The notes under the pieces: generated by a model | Databases searched by the model: none | Seen by the model: the letters and a program-made list of their open reading frames with translations, nothing else | Told to the model about the DNA's origin: nothing | Shown here: positions 33,887 to 55,574 of the stretch, piece after piece | Numbering within the stretch: the stretch's first letter is position 1 | How the letters are laid out: the number at the start of each line of letters is the position of its first letter | Position numbers and translations under genes: made by a program | Assembly: GCA_902385225.1 (NCBI GenBank) | Contig: CABMEU010000016.1 | Span: 1 to 55,574, forward strand | Length of the DNA stretch: 55,574 nucleotides | Direction of reading: 5' to 3' | Source of the DNA: an uncultured archaeon | GTDB lineage: Archaea; Iainarchaeota; Iainarchaeia; Iainarchaeales; JAAZKV01

Positions 33887-35005
33887 TCACTCCACGAACT
33901 TTATTTTCCCGATATTCTTTTTCGCTTTCTCAAAGTTTTTATTAAATTCCTCGTAGAACTGCTTTGCGTAGGTAAAAGCGTATTTTGCTTTGCATTCTCC
34001 GCACAAGTTTTTGCCGGTTACGCATTCCTCATACATTTTTGCGAGCACCTTGTCATCTTTTATGAAGTGGTCTTTGCAGTACTCATAAACCATGCATTTT
34101 TCAATTTCTCCGCCTTTTGCGTGCTGTTCTTCTCTTGTTGCTCTTCCGCCTGTGAGCGCTTTGTTTATTTTTTTCTCAACAATTTTCAAATCCTTCTCAG
34201 GTATCTCAAGTTTTATGAGTTCTGAATCGCTTTTGCTCATTTTAAATGAACCATTTAGGGCGGGAGTGTATTTGTTATAAACCGCTGAAGGCAAAAAGAA
34301 TCCGTACTCAGTCTTTAATCTGCGTGAAACATCCCTCACCATTCTAATATGCGGCGCCTGGTCAATTCCAACCGGTATTACTCCAGGCATTCGTTCAGAA
34401 AGCTGCGGGAATAATATGTCCCCCATTTGCGTGAACGCCGCCATTACTTTTGCCGGGTGCACTGAGCCATAAATTGCACGGAATTCATTTTCAGTAATCT
34501 TCTGTGAGCATATTGCCGCGAGGTTTGAGACTTTCTTGTTCTCGCTTTGCAGATAAAAATTTGTTTTGTTAATATCAAGTCCAAGCGCAATGTATGCGGG
34601 TATGTGGAACTCAAGCGCTCTTTTCTTTCCTTCCTCAAGTGACACTCCGCGTGTTGCCTGTGATTCTACATCCGCAATCAGAACGTAGGTTTTTGCGCCG
34701 TGCTCCTGGAAATACCTCACGTTTTGTATTACCGTTTCCGTTCCTAGGTGTATCTTTTCGCTTGACGGCATGATTCCTGTGAGGCAGTAAAAGGGTTTTT
34801 TGCTTTTTATCGCGTTAGCGATTTGTTCCCCGTCCTGCATTCCAAAATTCACTCCTCTTCTCATTTGGAGGTTTGGTTCAGGAAAGATATTGTTGTCAAA
34901 GCTCTGCATCCCAAATTCTTTTATGAGCCTAGCATAGTCATGCACAAGCGCATTTCCCCAAGGGTCAATAATCACTTTTTGTTCTTCAGTCATGTTCTCA
35001 CTCAT
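33887..35005 (-). CDS. trpS: Tryptophanyl-tRNA synthetase
   Basis: TGIMPS..HLG, VGIDQAPH, KMSKS, ALTGG, CGECK; start could be 35035. Confidence 0.95.
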   Translation of the reverse strand: MSENMTEEQKVIIDPWGNALVHDYARLIKEFGMQSFDNNIFPEPNLQMRRGVNFGMQDGEQIANAIKSKKPFYCLTGIMPSSEKIHLGTETVIQNVRYFQEHGAKTYVLIADVESQATRGVSLEEGKKRALEFHIPAYIALGLDINKTNFYLQSENKKVSNLAAICSQKITENEFRAIYGSVHPAKVMAAFTQMGDILFPQLSERMPGVIPVGIDQAPHIRMVRDVSRRLKTEYGFFLPSAVYNKYTPALNGSFKMSKSDSELIKLEIPEKDLKIVEKKINKALTGGRATREEQHAKGGEIEKCMVYEYCKDHFIKDDKVLAKMYEECVTGKNLCGECKAKYAFTYAKQFYEEFNKNFEKAKKNIGKIKFVE

Positions 35006-35073
35006 TTGCAGTTCTTTCTCTTTCACATAAACCAACTCCTTTTCTCTTTTTAATTGTTCTTGGAAGGGGTGGC

Positions 35074-36357
35074 TTATACAAGCCCCAGCCCCTTTTCGTA
35101 TGAACTTAAGTCAAGCAATCCGTGTCCTGAGAGATTGAAGACTATTGTTTTGTTTTTGTATCTCTTTGCCGCCTCAATTGCGGATTTTATCGCGTGGCTT
35201 GATTCGGGCGCGGGTATTATTGATTCTGTTTTTGCGAATAATTGCGCCGCTTCGAAGCACTCCGCCTGCGAGTATGATTCCGCTTTCACTAGCCCATGAT
35301 TAGCGAGTAGTGATATTATTGGTGCCATTCCGTGGTATCTCAAACCCCCCGCATATATTGGTTCTGGAACAAAATCCGCCCCCAAGGTATGCATCTTGAG
35401 TTTTGGTGTTTGTTTTCCTGTGTCGCCATAGTCGTGCCTATATTCTCCTTTTGTTATGCTTGGCACTTCTTTTGGCTCTACTCCAATTAACTCAATTTCT
35501 TTTCCAGCGAGTTTGTCAGCAACAAATGGAAGCGCGATTCCTCCGAAGTTGCTTCCTCCTCCAACGCACCCGATTATTACATCTGCACTCTCTCCGGCTT
35601 TCTCAAGCTGTTTTTTCACTTCCTGCCCGATTACGGTTTGGTGCAACAGCACATGGTTTAGTACGCTTCCAAGACTATACACGGTGTCCTCGCGTTCTTT
35701 TGCAACCTCAATTGCTTCGGCTATCGCCATTCCAAGACTCCCGCTTGTATTTGGAAATTTCTTTTGCATTTCTCTCCCGATTTTTGTTTCATTGCTCGGA
35801 CTTGGAGAGATTTTTGCTCCGTACATTTTCATAACCACTTTTCGCAAAGGTTTTTGCTCGTACGAACACTTCACCATGTATACTTTGAGGTTTAATCCAA
35901 AGTGATTGCATGCGAGTGCGAGAGCGCTCCCCCACTGCCCCGCGCCCGTTTCGGTTACAACATTTTTGTATCCCTCTTTTGCAATGTAATATGCTTGGGC
36001 AAAAGCGGTGTTTTGTTTGTGGCTTCCAACGGTGTTTGTATCCTCGCGCTTAAAATAAATTTTGCACGAGGTTCCGATTGCTTTCTCTAGTTTTCTTGCG
36101 CGCTGAAGCGGAGTGGGTCTTCCGTTTAGTGCATAAAGTTCTCTTACCTCTTCAGGTATTGGAATATATTTTTCCGTGCTCATTTCCTGTCCCAATATTG
36201 CTTTTGGGAATATTTGCGGCAAGACTTCCAAGTTCTCCTGCGGCGCTTCTAGTTGGAATGGAAGGTCCGCGAGCACGTTATAGAAGTGCGTTGGTATTTC
36301 GCTCTTCGATAGCATTATCACATCTTTCCCGTAATCCTTTCCTTTTTCTTCTTTCAT
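35074..36357 (-). CDS. trpB2: Tryptophan synthase beta chain TrpB2
   Basis: GSHK PLP lysine, TETGAGQWG, GSVLNHV, GGGSNF, GGLRYHG, APESSHA, NLSGHG. Confidence 0.95.
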   Translation of the reverse strand: MKEEKGKDYGKDVIMLSKSEIPTHFYNVLADLPFQLEAPQENLEVLPQIFPKAILGQEMSTEKYIPIPEEVRELYALNGRPTPLQRARKLEKAIGTSCKIYFKREDTNTVGSHKQNTAFAQAYYIAKEGYKNVVTETGAGQWGSALALACNHFGLNLKVYMVKCSYEQKPLRKVVMKMYGAKISPSPSNETKIGREMQKKFPNTSGSLGMAIAEAIEVAKEREDTVYSLGSVLNHVLLHQTVIGQEVKKQLEKAGESADVIIGCVGGGSNFGGIALPFVADKLAGKEIELIGVEPKEVPSITKGEYRHDYGDTGKQTPKLKMHTLGADFVPEPIYAGGLRYHGMAPIISLLANHGLVKAESYSQAECFEAAQLFAKTESIIPAPESSHAIKSAIEAAKRYKNKTIVFNLSGHGLLDLSSYEKGLGLV

Positions 36358-36393
36358 TTCATCAACTCCATTGCACAAGTTATGTGCTAATCA

Positions 36394-36464
36394 TGGGGGT
36401 ACAGGGAATCGAACCCTGATTTAAAGGTCTGGAGCCTTTTGTATTACCACTATACTATACCCCC
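36394..36464 (-). tRNA. trnW: tRNA-Trp(CCA), intronless
   Basis: Cloverleaf: GGGGGTA/TACCCCC acceptor, GTAT/ATAC D stem, AAAGG-CTCCAGA-CCTTT anticodon arm, CAGGG-TTCGATT-CCCTG T arm, A73. Confidence 0.95.
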
Positions 36465-36481
36465 GTTAATTTTGGAGTTAG

Positions 36482-36640
36482 TTAGTAGCGCCACCAGACA
36501 AAGAAGTTGTTTTCTGAATTAGAATTTGAGAAGTAACTTAAGAAAAGAATTAATTGGTGAGCAAGGATTGTCCGGAAGTTAAATGAGGTGAGCCTACAAT
36601 CAGTATATTCATCGACTCCAGACAATCCTTTCCATAACAC
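36482..36640 (-). CDS. Putative trp leader peptide ending FFVWWRY (52 aa, GTG start)
   Basis: Hand translation VLWKGLSGVDEYTDCRLTSFNFRTILAHQLILFLSYFSNSNSENNFFVWWRY*; tandem TGG TGG ends about 26 nt before tRNA-Trp. Confidence 0.45.
   Translation of the reverse strand: MLWKGLSGVDEYTDCRLTSFNFRTILAHQLILFLSYFSNSNSENNFFVWWRY
36563..36630 (-). promoter_or_regulatory. Leader RNA stem-loop upstream of tRNA-Trp/trpB2/trpS
   Basis: 14-bp arms AAGGATTGTCTGGA / TCCGGACAATCCTT (one G-U) enclosing GATGA-atata-CTGA. Confidence 0.6.
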
Positions 36641-36655
36641 ATAAGCGGCTTGCGT

Positions 36656-36672
36656 CCTTTATAAAGGCTTTT
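36656..36672 (-). promoter_or_regulatory. TATA box/BRE for the trp leader transcript
   Basis: AAAAAGCCTTTATAAAGG on the minus strand; TTTATAAA at 36658-36665. Confidence 0.6.
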
Positions 36673-36727
36673 TGGGTTTAGGTGTGACAATTTGTACATG
36701 TTGTGGCTAATCAACAGGCGGGTTCTA

Positions 36728-37630
36728 TTAGTTTGAGTAGAAATCAAGTGGGTTTAGCCCGTGTCTTCCGGCAAAAGTATTTATTTCAAGGAATAATTCG
36801 TCTCTTTCTTTGTCAAGCTTATTATAAAATTCCCTTCCAAGAACTTCTTTTGAATCAAAAATCGCTTTGTTTCTCTCAAGTAATTCATTCCATGCGCTTT
36901 TTGCAAGCGAGGCAGGATTCATAAGCTGTGCCTCAAGCCAGAAATATGTTGCCGTAATTGCAATTCCTGCATTTATGAATGCGTCCCCAACCTTCTGTTT
37001 CTCGTTTGCTTTGTTGGCCATTTTGTTTATGTGCATTCCAGCGTCATGTACCTCTTTTAGCAGTGCAAGCGCTTTTTTCTCGCCATTTTCCCCCAGCGCA
37101 TTTACAAGTTTAATAAAAAGTATTTCTCTTGGAGGATAAATCGTAATATTTGTTCTTGGAATCTTCATGTTGGTTGAATTAAGTATGCTTGTTAGCGCGC
37201 TCATTGCTTTTGGCGGAAGATTCTTTTTTCTAATCTCTTTTAAGATTCCTCTCGTTGCGGCGCGTTTTGCTATTTCGACCGCTTGAGTTTTTGAATTCTT
37301 TCTCAGTATTCCAACGTCAATCGAGTTAAGGATTTGATTTGAAGCCTCTCTCTGTGCTGAACTGGTTATTGACTCCTCAAGTTCTTTTCGACTAGCAGTA
37401 GTCATTTTTGAAGTAATTTCCTTTAATTGTCCAATCTGGCTCATTGCTCTCTTTTGCCAGACCTCATCAGCGACCACAGGCTTGTTTTGCAAAAGTCTGT
37501 TTGTTATTCTCCGCATTAGCTCTGGAGTAACGGAATTTTTTCCATACAAAACAGTTTTTGAGCCGGGGTCTCGCTTTGCTCTGCCCTTAACAAGTTGTTT
37601 AAAATCCGGTTTCTTTTGCATAAGCATCAT
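36728..37630 (-). CDS. Basic helical hypothetical protein
   Basis: About 300 aa K/R-rich ORF; no recognisable motif. Confidence 0.6.
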   Translation of the reverse strand: MMLMQKKPDFKQLVKGRAKRDPGSKTVLYGKNSVTPELMRRITNRLLQNKPVVADEVWQKRAMSQIGQLKEITSKMTTASRKELEESITSSAQREASNQILNSIDVGILRKNSKTQAVEIAKRAATRGILKEIRKKNLPPKAMSALTSILNSTNMKIPRTNITIYPPREILFIKLVNALGENGEKKALALLKEVHDAGMHINKMANKANEKQKVGDAFINAGIAITATYFWLEAQLMNPASLAKSAWNELLERNKAIFDSKEVLGREFYNKLDKERDELFLEINTFAGRHGLNPLDFYSN

Positions 37631-37722: not shown

Positions 37723-40059
37723 ATGAAGCAAGCCAAAGAGAAAAGCGCAAAAATTGAGGCAAAACCTGTTGCTGAGAAAGAACCAAAGGATAAGGTTCAC
37801 TGGGCTGATGAGATTGCAATGCAAGTGGTTAAGGCAAAACCAAATCAGGATTCTTTTACTGTTGCCTCAGGAATTACTCCTTCAGGGGTTGTGCATATCG
37901 GGAATTTTAGGGAAATAATTACTGTTGATTTAGTTGCTAAGGCATTACGAAAACTCGGGAAAAAAGTTAGGTTCATTTACTCCTGGGATGATTATGATGT
38001 TTTTAGAAAAGTTCCAGTGAATATGCCAAAGCAGGAAATGCTCACAAAGCACTTGCGCTATCCAATAGTTGATGTGCCTGACCCGTTTGGAAAAGAAAAG
38101 AGTTATGCTCGGCACTTTGAAGTAGAAGTTGAGAGGCGCCTCCCGGATGTTGGAATTAATGTTGAGTTCATTTACCAGGCTGACAGATACAAAAAATCTT
38201 TTTACGCTGAAGAAATAAAGTTCGCGATGATTAATAGAAAACGAATCGCAAAAATACTTGATTTGTATAGAGAAGAGCCTCTTGAAGAGAATTGGTATCC
38301 TTCCTCAATCTTTTGCGAGAAGTGCCGCTCAGATGAAACAGAAATTACTGGTTATGATGAGAAATATTTGGTTTCATATAAATGCGTTTGCGGGCATACA
38401 GATACTTTTGATATTAGAAAAAAAGGAATAATTAAACTCGTTTGGCGCGTTGATTGGCCGATGAGGTGGAATTTTGAGAAAGTTGATTTTGAGCCGAGTG
38501 GAAAAGACCATTCAAGCGAAGGCGGAAGCAATACAACAGCGGCACTAATAGTAAAAGAACTTTGGGGAAGAGAGGCGCCGATTCACTTGATGTATGAATT
38601 CATTGCGATTAAGGGGCAGGGCGGAAAAATGTCCTCCTCAAAAGGAAATACAGTTGATTTAAATGAAATGCTTGAAGTATATTCTCCAGAACTATTGAGA
38701 TACACTTTTGCCTCAAAGAAACCATCAAAATCCTTTGAAATTAGCTTTGAAGGGATGGATGTGATTAGAGCATATTCAGAATTCCAAAAAGTTGAGCGAA
38801 TGTACTTTGGAAAAGAACCAATTGACAAAGAAGATGTTGAGCTAAACAATAGAGTTTACGAACTTAGCTGTGTTAATATTCCAAAACAAATGCCCGAGCA
38901 AATTGATTTTAGGCACATGGTGACAGTTGCGCAAACATACCAATTTGATAAGAAGAAAATCGCGGAATTCTTTAACTCAAAAGACAAGAAGTACTGCGAC
39001 TTGATGGTTGATAGAGCAAAGGCGTGGATAACTGATTATGCGGAAGAGAGTTTCAAGTTCTCTGTTAATGAAGAAGCCAGCGATGAAGCAAAAACTTTGC
39101 TCTCTGAGAATCAGAAAAAAGCGATAAAACTTGTTTCTTCCCAGCTTGTTGGAAAGAAAGAGGATGAACTAATTGAATTGTTTGGTAAAGTTACGAAAGA
39201 AACCTCTCTTGACCAAAAAACTTTCTTTACCGCGTTTTACAGGGCGCTTATCAACAAAGACTTTGGACCAAAACTTACTCACTTCATGCTAGTAATTGGT
39301 TTGCCAAAAGTGAAAAAGATACTTGATTCGGTTGAGAAACCAGTTTCAAAGAAAGCTGTGTCAAATTCAAAAGAACTTGACTTGAATGGATTAAACTTTG
39401 AGATAAATAGTGAAATAACTTCAAAGTATCCTCAGTTTCGCTCAGGAATAGTTGTTCTTAATGGAGTGAATAACGTAAAAGAGAATAAGGAAATCACTGC
39501 ACTCCTCCGCTCTGCAGAAAATGATTTACGCGCAAGATTTGCGGGAGTAGAGCCAATTACAATTCCTCAACTAAAAGCATGGAGGGATGCTTATGCATTG
39601 TTCAACGGCGACCCTGCGAAGAACAAGCCCTCTGTGGATGCACTCGTTCGAAGAGTATTGAATAATAATTCGCTTCCAAACATTAATGCGCTAGTTGATT
39701 TGTATAATTATATCTCAATCAAACATCTTTTGCCTGCAGGCGGGGATGATTTGGATAAAGTTGAGGGAAAAGTAAGGCTTTGCATCGCTGATGGCACTGA
39801 AGACTTTTTTATGATTGGCGGAAAAATGAAGGAGCACCCAAACAGGGGCGAAGTAATTTACCGTGATGATAAAGATGTTCTTTGCAGGCGCTGGAACTGG
39901 AGAGAAGCGGACAAAACCAAGTTCACCGAAAGCACAAAGAATGCTGTTGTGTATATTGAAAGCATGCTAAAAGAAGATGATTTGGATGGCGCGCTAAAAG
40001 AATTCTGCACGCTTGCTGAGAAATATCTTAAAGCAAAAGCTGAATATCGCCTTTTGTAG
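37723..40059 (+). CDS. lysS: Class I lysyl-tRNA synthetase fused to C-terminal B3/4 domain
   Basis: HWAD, SGITPSGVVHIGN, WRVDWPMRW, KMSSSKG; from about 39391 WRDAY...PSVDALVRR, INALVDLYN.IS, GGDDLD, GEVIYRDD, CRRWNWRE. Confidence 0.95.
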   Translation: MKQAKEKSAKIEAKPVAEKEPKDKVHWADEIAMQVVKAKPNQDSFTVASGITPSGVVHIGNFREIITVDLVAKALRKLGKKVRFIYSWDDYDVFRKVPVNMPKQEMLTKHLRYPIVDVPDPFGKEKSYARHFEVEVERRLPDVGINVEFIYQADRYKKSFYAEEIKFAMINRKRIAKILDLYREEPLEENWYPSSIFCEKCRSDETEITGYDEKYLVSYKCVCGHTDTFDIRKKGIIKLVWRVDWPMRWNFEKVDFEPSGKDHSSEGGSNTTAALIVKELWGREAPIHLMYEFIAIKGQGGKMSSSKGNTVDLNEMLEVYSPELLRYTFASKKPSKSFEISFEGMDVIRAYSEFQKVERMYFGKEPIDKEDVELNNRVYELSCVNIPKQMPEQIDFRHMVTVAQTYQFDKKKIAEFFNSKDKKYCDLMVDRAKAWITDYAEESFKFSVNEEASDEAKTLLSENQKKAIKLVSSQLVGKKEDELIELFGKVTKETSLDQKTFFTAFYRALINKDFGPKLTHFMLVIGLPKVKKILDSVEKPVSKKAVSNSKELDLNGLNFEINSEITSKYPQFRSGIVVLNGVNNVKENKEITALLRSAENDLRARFAGVEPITIPQLKAWRDAYALFNGDPAKNKPSVDALVRRVLNNNSLPNINALVDLYNYISIKHLLPAGGDDLDKVEGKVRLCIADGTEDFFMIGGKMKEHPNRGEVIYRDDKDVLCRRWNWREADKTKFTESTKNAVVYIESMLKEDDLDGALKEFCTLAEKYLKAKAEYRLL

Positions 40060-54562: not shown

Positions 54563-54705
54563 CTTGCACAAATTATGGGTTTGTGAGTTTTTGAAATGCT
54601 TTTTTTTGTCCTACAAAAGGCATTTAAATCAGTTCATTTATTTATAGATAGTATTGGACGAATAAGTATTCTTTTTGTCTAACTTGCCTAAAAAATTTGA
54701 TGATT

Positions 54706-55574
54706 ATGGATAAAAAATATTCAATTACGGGTCACGGTGCGTGCAAGGAAGTTGGAAGAAGCGCTTTTGTTGTTGATTTTGGCGAAAAATTCCTGATGGA
54801 TTATGGAATTAAGCTTAATATTGACGCGATAGAATACCCTACTGAAATCACTGAGCCGGTTAAAGCGGCGATTATTTCCCACGCCCACCTTGACCACTCG
54901 GGGCTGCTTCCTTATTTTTATAAAAAATCTGAGTGCTTGAGTTTCATGACACAATCAACTCTTGAGCTTGCTGATTTACTTTGGAGGGATTCAATAAAAA
55001 TCGCGGAGTTTGAGGGAATGGCGCCAAAATATGATAAGGGCGAGATTGAGCAGACGCATAGATACAATTTTGTTGTTCCTTATGATAAAAAACTCAGCTT
55101 GACTCACGATGTTTCACTTGAGTTCTTTGACGCTGGGCACATCCTCGGCTCGGCTCTTACAAAACTCACTCACGAAGAAAATACTTTTTTGTACACTGGG
55201 GATTACAAAGTAAACGAAACCCAGCTTCACGTGGGCGCAAATCTTGATGTTGGTAAAGTTGATTATGTGATGACTGAAGCGACTTATGGTGATAGAGAGC
55301 AGGCGGATAGAAAACTTGAAGAGAAAGCGTTCTGCGAGTCAGTTCAAAGCACTGTTGAGCGCGGAGGGTGGGCGATAGTACCAGTTCTTGCTATCGGCAG
55401 AAGCCAGGAAATAGTTGATATTTTATCAAAGTATAATCTTGATGCCCCGATTTATCTTGACGGAATGGGAAAGAAAGTTTCTGAGATTTATATGCAGCAT
55501 GCGGATTTGATTAAGGATTCTCACGGACTAAAAAAAGCCTTAAATGGAGTTAATTGGGTTGAAGGAAAACAGGG
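54706..55574 (+). CDS. MBL/beta-CASP ribonuclease (aCPSF2-like), partial, runs off window
   Basis: Not in ORF track. GACKEVGRS, SHAHLDHSG, DAGHILGSA, YTGD, EATYG, IGRSQE. Confidence 0.9.
   Translation, partial: MDKKYSITGHGACKEVGRSAFVVDFGEKFLMDYGIKLNIDAIEYPTEITEPVKAAIISHAHLDHSGLLPYFYKKSECLSFMTQSTLELADLLWRDSIKIAEFEGMAPKYDKGEIEQTHRYNFVVPYDKKLSLTHDVSLEFFDAGHILGSALTKLTHEENTFLYTGDYKVNETQLHVGANLDVGKVDYVMTEATYGDREQADRKLEEKAFCESVQSTVERGGWAIVPVLAIGRSQEIVDILSKYNLDAPIYLDGMGKKVSEIYMQHADLIKDSHGLKKALNGVNWVEGKQ

Follow-up and report, generated by a model that had tools for sequence, protein, structure and literature searches.

A probable ribosome-read tryptophan leader with an overlapping +1 frame in an operon of an uncultured archaeon

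The window studied here is a stretch of 55,574 nucleotides (contig CABMEU010000016.1) from an uncultured archaeon, and its minus strand carries, upstream of the genes for a tRNA-Trp, trpB2 and trpS, the short region that is the subject of this work. The best explanation of this region is a translated leader that regulates an operon for Trp supply (second tRNA-Trp, trpB2, trpS). Comparison with the sequences of related leaders showed a promoter-proximal mini-ORF (ORF, open reading frame), called ORF1, with one Trp codon placed in a hairpin, a +1 frame, called ORF2, that is selectively kept open, and an exclusive association with Trp-supply genes. Judged by these comparisons, it is highly probable that the leader is read by ribosomes and that its regulatory function is specific for Trp codons, and we lean slightly towards a +1 frameshift at UGG as the link between ORF1 and ORF2. 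The TATA box, the mini-ORF, a 52-codon frame in the +1 phase relative to it, and the genes for tRNA-Trp, trpB2 and trpS all lie where the original prediction, which had been made from the letters of the window, had placed them (Table 1), and it is probably through the +1 relation between these two frames that the leader works. Both ORFs and the hairpin were found again in 25 further leaders of relatives, which is beyond chance.

The mini-ORF and the open +1 frame in related leaders

A total of 26 leaders was read, one from the window and 25 from relatives, and several of the counts given below cover 23 of them. Using a covariance model built from 11 leaders, the element was detected in 22 of the 38 genomes of the family, including the window's own, with one leader per genome in those 22. 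When the window genome is left aside, the element was present in 18 of 21 genomes of its genus, in 3 of 12 of a second genus and in none of the 4 genomes of three other genera. With a second covariance model, 151 genomes sampled from the order yielded 13 that carry it, namely the window's own and 12 of 16 family genomes, and none of the 134 genomes belonging to other families of the order had it. All 26 leaders sit ahead of trpS, trpB1, trpB2, tRNA-Trp or a racemase-like gene; the downstream genes are trpS (10 leaders), tRNA-Trp and trpS (2), trpB1 (3), tRNA-Trp and trpB1 (2), trpB2 (1), tRNA or tRNA-like sequence and trpB2 (5, where the window's operon contains trpS as well) and a gene of the Asp/Glu-racemase family (3). 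The long leader is not general to tRNA-Trp genes, as only 2 of 12 tRNA-Trp loci in relatives have it, and pieces of the leader matched loci other than tRNA-Trp genes.

In each of the 26 leaders, an ATG is followed in frame by (GUC or UCC) UGG AG(U/C) and then by a stop. Counted from its invariant ATG, ORF1 comprises 7-16 codons, the distance from ATG to UGG differs by whole codons among leaders, and the stop follows 2-5 codons past UGG, with UGA, UAG and UAA all being used. In the alignment A2 of 11 leaders, the columns of the ATG and of GTCTGGAG show no variation. In all 26 Trp leaders, and likewise in the 9 single-codon thrS leaders treated below, a frame-0 stop soon past the sensing codon is combined with an open +1 frame, and in all 26 Trp leaders the codon matches the gene, UGG standing ahead of Trp genes. 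The mini-ORF with its Trp codon, to which the original prediction had given second rank, is present as described and forms the conserved core of the leader. ORF1 holds one UGG, and UGG UGG occurs in 4 of the 26 leaders (the window and three others); of the two features that the original prediction had expected to be conserved, the open frame was retained over a fixed span in 23 of 23 leaders, and the tandem Trp codons were not.

In the window, counting from the first T of the TATA box, the A of the ORF1 ATG is located 30 nt downstream. In 22 of 23 leaders the ATG lies 24 nt past the start of the model hit, a point immediately 3' of the TATA hexamer, and in one leader this distance is 27 nt. 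A TATA box is centred near -26/-27 from the transcription start. Because the distance between ATG and TATA box is fixed and fits this rule, ORF1 is predicted to be leaderless, with a transcript starting at or next to its AUG. The GTG at 36640, which the original prediction had used as start of the 52-codon frame, would therefore be upstream of the transcript, 5 nt before the predicted transcription start; it is shared with the closest relative only.

ORF2 is what is left of the 52-codon frame when it is entered from ORF1. Over a fixed 109 nt past UGG, frames 0, +1 and +2 are stop-free in 0, 23 and 3 of 23 leaders, respectively, and over the spacer past the hairpin, which measures 52-63 nt and is non-alignable, in 2, 23 and 5 of 23. 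The products of the per-lineage shuffle probabilities amount to 10^-13 for the 109-nt span and to 10^-7.5 for the spacer over 14 lineages, and both values overstate independence because the lineages are related. In the three leaders outside these 23, the +1 ORFs had 39, 31 and 70 codons. The sequence of the ORF2 peptide is not conserved, and on these comparisons it is the openness of ORF2 that matters and not its peptide. That ORF2 might instead encode a functional small protein of the Trp regulon, with ORF1 as a by-product, is extremely improbable. Such a protein would account for a conserved open frame of 31-138 codons that includes LSGV and RLT; however, the length is variable, no start codon is conserved, substitutions between close relatives are spread evenly over the codon positions (12, 8 and 8 in one example), no Pfam match was obtained for ORF2, and the conserved residues coincide with elements at the RNA level.

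Two types of ORF2 ends were encountered. In 16 of 26 leaders, a UGG is found within the last 10 codons and is followed by the stop, and in the remaining leaders ORF2 extends to the next start codon, with the exception of G016, where UGG precedes the ORF2 stop by 24 codons. An AUGA overlap of ORF2 with the start of trpS is found in G004, in the second copy in G001, in G006 and in G017. Of 23 leaders, 20 have a UUG two codons ahead of GGA; one leader has AUG at this place, another has CUG, and in the last the codon is absent. Past the UUG, the window ORF2 contains no AUG, GUG or UUG.

A threonine counterpart and enzyme frames lacking a start codon

In the window genome, thrS is also preceded by a leader (G000:C42:19857-20026, L142) that has the same palindrome and TATA box as the Trp leader (see below). 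Its ORF, predicted to be leaderless, encodes MDFVTIL (ATG GAT TTT GTC ACT ATA CTC TGA) and has ACU in the place of the UGG of the Trp leader; the +1 frame of this leader continues for 29 codons past ACU until a stop 1 nt before the AUG of threonyl-tRNA synthetase (ThrRS). We read 29 thrS upstream regions in the family. A single ACU in contexts of the UGG type, such as UUU GUC ACU AGU C, GAG UCA GCC ACU or GAU UUA GCC ACU, was found in 9 of them, and in 9 of 9 cases the +1 frame remains free of stops for 29-42 codons and terminates between -14 and +17 nt from the thrS start. In 9 other thrS leaders there are runs of Thr codons, for example in a peptide ending with ..TTTTTTTQ, and only 3 of the 8 complete leaders of this kind have an open +1 frame. 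Altogether, ACU or Thr runs are present ahead of thrS in 18 of 29 regions, and no leader was seen by eye in the remaining 11. Because the sensing codon matches the downstream gene, we conclude that the UGG of the window is likely to be read as a codon, and this match is the strongest evidence for such a reading.

In seven relatives, an upstream ORF (uORF) that is led by a Shine-Dalgarno sequence and ends with ..(R)RDL(A/V) W .. and a stop is followed by the main ORF in the +1 frame. The main ORF is trpB2 in G018, G010, G012 and G011, trpB1 in G013 and a racemase-like gene in G016 and G046. In G010, G011, G012, G013 and G016, the +1 frame opens right behind the UAG at the site, which reads GAU UUA GYY UGG C, and G021 (trpB1) shows a variant site in which CCC CGG replaces UGG. 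In the racemase-like ORFs of G016, G046 and G047, the Asp_Glu_race profile of Pfam begins at residue 13-14 and the first ATG, GTG or TTG occurs only at codon 27-35. Similarly, TrpB1 of G013 has no start codon ahead of its conserved N-terminal YFGEFGG. In G047, ORF2 itself is followed by the racemase-like ORF in the +1 frame at ..UUA GCC UGG A.., so that ORF1, ORF2 and an enzyme without start codon form a chain. The exact site pattern has 8 matches in the 38 family genomes; 5 of them display the arrangement of uORF and +1 ORF, all in Trp-leader operons, and the other 3 are inside ordinary ORFs outside Trp operons. Comparison of these loci showed relatives in which production of an enzyme, its ORF having no usable start codon, requires a +1 shift at UGG. 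A genome-wide scan for pairs of a leaderless ORF and a +1 ORF gave 207 matches and was too noisy for use.

A racemase-like gene of the window genome (G000:C10:8476-9280, L143), located behind the same palindrome, is interrupted at two AGG codons, in CCC AGG C and in GUC AGG AGU C, and a +1 shift at each break would give a protein colinear with those of relatives. As the closest relative has no more than a truncated remnant of the gene, gene decay is as likely as programmed shifting, and we do not count this gene as evidence. In the incomplete genome, ARAGORN detected only tRNA-Arg(UCU) for AGR codons.

The hairpin and the proposed mode of action

The conserved hairpin is laid out with UGG in its 5' arm and with the ORF1 stop and a sequence motif in its loop. 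For 14 pairs in 22 leaders, 90.3% of the pairs were formed, compared with 28-50% when partners were slid; 5 of the 14 pairs had changed on both sides, none of 500 shuffles reached the covariation score, and the hairpin was part of the minimum-energy fold in 23 of 23 leaders. The window sequence folded with -35.9 kcal/mol (z = -2.3), and 5 of 200 shuffles folded as well. The original prediction had described a stem inside the leader, and this stem has 16-17 bp in the minimum-energy fold of the window; also, the U-rich tract said to follow it is present, starting about 15 nt past the stem.

The loop motif has the consensus UA(G/A)GCUCACC and resembles the 3' end of 16S rRNA GGAUCACCUCCU; its UAG is an in-frame stop of the ORF1 frame, as judged by eye and without a tally. 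The genome has two further conserved RNAs with the motif UAGGCUCACC, for which no Rfam family was found and which are neither SRP RNA nor RNase P RNA. One of them, at G000:C42:5852-6060 (L103), is a structured small RNA of about 170 nt that contains GGGUAGGCUCACCAGGCUUUAA, has the same kind of upstream palindrome and is present in one copy in at least 8 relatives. The other, at G000:C29:89128-89208 (L096) and found in G021 as well, is a Shine-Dalgarno-led uORF encoding MQANRTSNKLLIRSLRELCFWRLE, whose stop is the UAG of the UAGGCUCACC motif; it is located about 260 nt upstream of a FEN1-like gene, and its +1 frame is not open. The end of the 16S rRNA gene near G000:C29:131555 reads ..GGAUCACCUCCU, and the Shine-Dalgarno sequences of leader operons are long and of the type GGAG(N)UGAU.

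With hairpin and motif conserved to this extent, the leader might be an RNA-only element, in which hairpin and motif bind either tRNA-Trp, in the manner of a T-box, or a protein such as tryptophanyl-tRNA synthetase (TrpRS), and in which the ORFs are incidental. GUCUGGAG is indeed complementary to the anticodon loop of tRNA-Trp, CUCCAGAC, nucleotide-level conservation is seen for GUCUGGAGUC and UAGGCUCACC, there is a likeness between the 3' arm and the anticodon arm of tRNA-Trp, and one of the two other RNAs with the motif is non-coding. However, an RNA-only element does not account for the fixed distance of the ATG, for changes of ORF1 by whole codons or for the lack of stops in the +1 frame of non-alignable spacers. 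The likeness to the anticodon arm follows trivially from pairing with the codon, and in the thrS leader of G020 (one leader, by eye) the 3' arm complements ACU. Apart from the tRNA, neither a T-box nor any other Rfam family matched positions 36300-36800 at E <= 10, and no T-box matched the whole window at the gathering score. We therefore regard an RNA-only element as very improbable. Two related candidates were rejected. A C/D-box guide RNA for C34 of tRNA-Trp had been suggested by 10 nt of complementarity to the anticodon loop, and the C/D boxes are not conserved in relatives. A tRNA-mimic operator for TrpRS was discarded, since the likeness is the trivial outcome of pairing with the codon.

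On the reading that we favour, transcription would start at or next to the AUG of ORF1, giving a leaderless mRNA, and a ribosome would translate ORF1 and reach its single UGG. When Trp-tRNA is ample, UGG would be decoded and the ribosome would leave at the stop 2-5 codons further on in the hairpin loop, after which the hairpin would re-form and about 125 nt of leader would stay untranslated. When Trp-tRNA is scarce, the A site would remain empty, the +1 codon would be taken (GUC U GGA) and translation would go on into ORF2, a frame that would be open solely for being translated. In relatives, ORF2 would lead the ribosome to the start codon of trpS and couple translation, as it would in the thrS leaders, or else a second UGG would shift the ribosome straight into the enzyme ORF. 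In the window, ORF2 ends with UGG UGG..UAA 17 nt before the tRNA, and the output would therefore act on RNA; our favoured guess is that a ribosome trailing the polymerase would suppress premature termination or decay in the U-rich leader. Such a relief of termination or polarity is a doubtful proposal as it stands. The aCPSF1/FttA protein has a role in termination and polarity, and a full orthologue encoded on contig C41 makes a termination output plausible in this genome. The UGG UGG of the window may keep ribosomes on the leader for longer, or it may be what remains of a second shift site like that in G047. A ribosome-read leader and the frameshift, taken together, appear fairly probable from the comparisons.

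Several points weigh against this reading. The P-site codon GUC is unable to re-pair in the +1 frame (GUC to UCU), which distinguishes it from classic slippery sites, and by inspection GUC U, GCC U and GUU U all allow only poor +1 re-pairing; neither a conserved frameshift stimulator nor a re-pairing rule was identified in the leaders. The window trpB2 is a single unbroken frame, and the frameshift cassettes are therefore evidence from relatives only. A starved ribosome that had shifted would stall again at the UGG UGG of the window, and a shift there would lead to another stop. The conserved UUG could start ORF2 by itself. No terminator-like hairpin with a U-run was found in 36300-36800, by eye, the distance from the stem to the U tracts is about 15-25 nt, and the leaders are rich in A+T, with a G+C content of 0.21-0.42 in the model hits. 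Finally, all genomes compared are metagenome bins of one family and are mutually related.

Stalling without frameshift would be a rival arrangement, in which a ribosome at the UGG of ORF1 or at the UGG UGG of ORF2 covers the hairpin's 5' arm and thereby alters RNA folding, termination or decay, in the way of bacterial leader-peptide attenuators and of the leaderless short ORFs of mycobacteria, and in which ORF2 starts on its own at the conserved UUG. Consistent with stalling, the sensing codon is within the 5' arm in Trp and thrS leaders alike, the poly-Thr thrS leaders with their few open +1 frames (3 of 8) resemble the classic stall type, UUG is found in 20 of 23 leaders with AUG in one, and pairing of the 3' arm with the second Trp box is possible in the window and in four relatives. 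However, this 2:3 pairing, observed when the 5' arm was masked, was obtained in just 5 of 23 folds, with the window fold showing it partly, and the alternative structure was not adopted on this count; a bacterial-type terminator was rejected, none having been found in 36300-36800. In this respect the statement of the original prediction that a classical terminator/antiterminator pair is absent was borne out, with 0 terminator-like sites. Stalling alone leaves unexplained the enzyme ORFs that have no start codon and open exactly at UGG, and also the +1 bridge to the next start in 9 of 9 single-codon thrS leaders. Moreover, it would have the wrong sign, since a ribosome stalled at UGG covers UUG and would reduce translation of ORF2, and hence of coupled trpS, in starvation. 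For these reasons stalling alone is considered unlikely.

Returning to the frameshift reading, its broadest form would be a modular switch that in this archaeal family replaces T-boxes or terminator attenuators and consists of a leaderless mini-ORF, an exchangeable hungry codon (UGG/ACU), a +1 shift into a bridging ORF and, in some genomes, a second codon that makes it a two-step cascade into the enzyme. We put this generalisation forward tentatively, as a realistic possibility.

In the bacterial trp operon attenuator, a short translated leader peptide, trpL, contains Trp codons, and the position of the ribosome is the signal. Like that attenuator, the region studied here is short, predicted to be translated, equipped with Trp codons and placed ahead of Trp genes, and the position of the ribosome on these codons is presumed to be its signal. 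In contrast to trpL, it is archaeal, predicted to be leaderless and composed of two overlapping frames with a single conserved Trp codon; no terminator hairpin with U-run was found, an antiterminator alternative is seen in the few folds mentioned, and the leader precedes a tRNA, a tRNA synthetase and trpB2 in place of trpEDCBA. The likeness of its WWR to E. coli TrpL, to which the original prediction had drawn attention, is superficial. T-box riboswitches share with the leader a codon that names the amino acid ahead of genes for aminoacyl-tRNA synthetases or amino acid metabolism and that is swapped between genes, whereas the codon of the leader is inside an ORF and would be read by a ribosome and not by a naked tRNA, and no T-box match was obtained. 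To our knowledge, T-boxes are bacterial.

The autoregulatory +1 frameshifts of prfB (release factor RF2) and of antizyme, the latter outlined in PMC8211752, resemble the proposed working of the leader in that a short frame-0 ORF ends past a slow codon, the product is in the +1 frame, and the shift frequency reports a shortage of the factor that reads the codon and corrects that shortage. They differ from it in several respects, as the slow codon of the leader is a sense codon for aminoacyl-tRNA and can be swapped (UGG/ACU), its P-site codon does not re-pair in +1, and the +1 product in the window is a non-conserved bridging peptide and not an enzyme. According to excerpts of bioRxiv 10.1101/834739, mycobacterial attenuators with leaderless polycysteine short ORFs (sORFs) use codon runs, and stalling unmasks a sequestered ribosome-binding site. 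They have in common with our leader a leaderless sensory sORF and amino-acid-specific pausing (both only predicted here) and an RNA structure that involves the sORF; in contrast, the leader has one codon and an overlapping +1 ORF, no sequestered binding site was seen in it, and the hairpin partner of its codon is not a ribosome-binding site. The poly-Thr thrS leaders match the mycobacterial attenuators more closely than does the Trp leader.

As for protein regulators, the excerpts of PMC6737238 name TrpY and Tar as known archaeal Trp regulators, with little else known about Trp regulation in archaea, and place activators such as Tar upstream of the B recognition element (BRE) and TATA box. The palindrome TGTACAAATTGTCACAC occupies such a place, and its position is conserved across related leaders; the same kind of palindrome with a TATA box is found in the window genome before the thrS leader, a racemase-like gene and a small RNA. 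This likeness to Tar suggests an additional protein layer of control, although half-sites and spacing differ from TGGACA-N8-TGTCCA, as given in those excerpts, and the leader would act after transcription initiation.

In the excerpts of a 2021 review (PMC8211752), archaeal frameshifting has one proven case, a -1 shift in fucA1, and the +1 shifts named for a virus and for Mg chelatase have the status of suggestions. The parts of a 2016 review of recoding seen here (PMC5009743) state that no hungry-codon frameshifting with starvation-specific products is known, and in human cancer cells Trp shortage leads to frameshifting at Trp codons, according to an excerpt of PMC13751296. Among the top results of full-text literature searches there was no archaeal leader-peptide attenuator, which is not proof of absence. 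If the frameshift reading is true in its broad, modular form, this would be the first natural sense-codon frameshift that senses starvation and turns on genes for amino acid supply; for Archaea, neither a programmed +1 frameshift of a cellular gene nor control by a leader peptide would have been shown before it. The locus and its relatives offer concrete and easily mutated sequences for the study of Trp regulation, leader-peptide control and frameshifting, for which the natural swap from UGG to ACU is an ideal control, and they bear on how genome-reduced DPANN archaea tune their supply of tRNA, synthetase and salvage enzyme.

Host genome, operon and neighbouring features

The window belongs to a genome assembly of 1.05 Mb with a G+C content of 40.6% that is 87% complete and contains an archaeal 16S rRNA and a class I lysyl-tRNA synthetase (LysRS). 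The family holding the leader is Ca. Forterrea-like and is part of the Iainarchaeota (within DPANN). Coordinates of the features of the leader and the operon are given in Table 1.

Table 1. Position of leader and operon features in the window, and loci of the frameshift cassettes in relatives
Feature	Position	Strand	Remark
Imperfect palindrome TGTACAAATTGTCACAC, upstream of BRE/TATA	36682..36698	-	candidate transcription-factor site
TATA box TTTATAAA	36658..36665	-	sequence reading
52-codon GTG frame	36640-36482	-	+1 relative to mini-ORF
ORF1, mini-ORF MERIVWSR and stop	36609..36635	-	ATG GAA AGG ATT GTC TGG AGT CGA TGA; predicted leaderless
Conserved hairpin	36563..36630	-	5' arm 36630-36615 (with UGG), 3' arm 36579-36563
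Sensing UGG of ORF1	36620-36618	-	invariant codon
ORF2, +1 frame entered at U-GGA	36482..36619	-	earlier 52-codon frame minus GTG
Hairpin-loop motif UAGGCUCACC	36587..36596	-	nearly invariant
Second GCUCACC copy	36562-36556	-	sequence reading
Terminal UGG UGG of ORF2	36496-36491	-	end reads UGG UGG CGC UAC UAA
Stop of ORF2	36484-36482	-	UAA
tRNA-Trp (CCA)	36394..36464	-	tRNA prediction and Rfam match
trpB2, stand-alone TrpB-like pyridoxal phosphate enzyme	35074..36357	-	NF009057 and TIGR01415 above cut-offs
trpS (TrpRS)	33887..35026	-	TIGR00233 above cut-off; probable GUG start at 35026
Cassette loci in relatives	L051, L059, L060, L063, L064, L065/L114, L054, L133, L134		L134 is G047, where ORF2 plays the role of the uORF

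The TrpB-like product scored 643 bits with NF009057 (cut-off 366) and TrpRS scored 217 bits with TIGR00233 (cut-off 176.75). The Shine-Dalgarno sequence of trpB2 is GGAGUUGAU, and the trpB2 genes of the window and of G015 have an equivalent N-terminal extension fused in frame. In the 87%-complete genome no gene scored above the cut-off for trpA, and trpB2 is therefore likely to work in indole salvage. The tRNA-Trp of the window is the second copy in the genome, the other being located at G000:C7:1243-1323, and no TATA box of its own was found within about 40 nt.

In three relatives, G012 (L063), G010 (L064) and G011 (L059), the tRNA in the Trp operon is degenerate, with an anticodon loop that reads UUUUUUA or is 6 nt long and with acceptor and T arms retained, and such a tRNA may serve only as a processing signal. 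At the edge of the window, positions 54694-55518 of the plus strand gave a partial match to the aCPSF1 family (TIGR03675, 207 bits) that is below the cut-off. Also on the plus strand, at 37723-40059, no leader peptide was found at the class I LysRS gene of the window, which looks leaderless and whose product is fused to a C-terminal B3/4 domain (PF03483).

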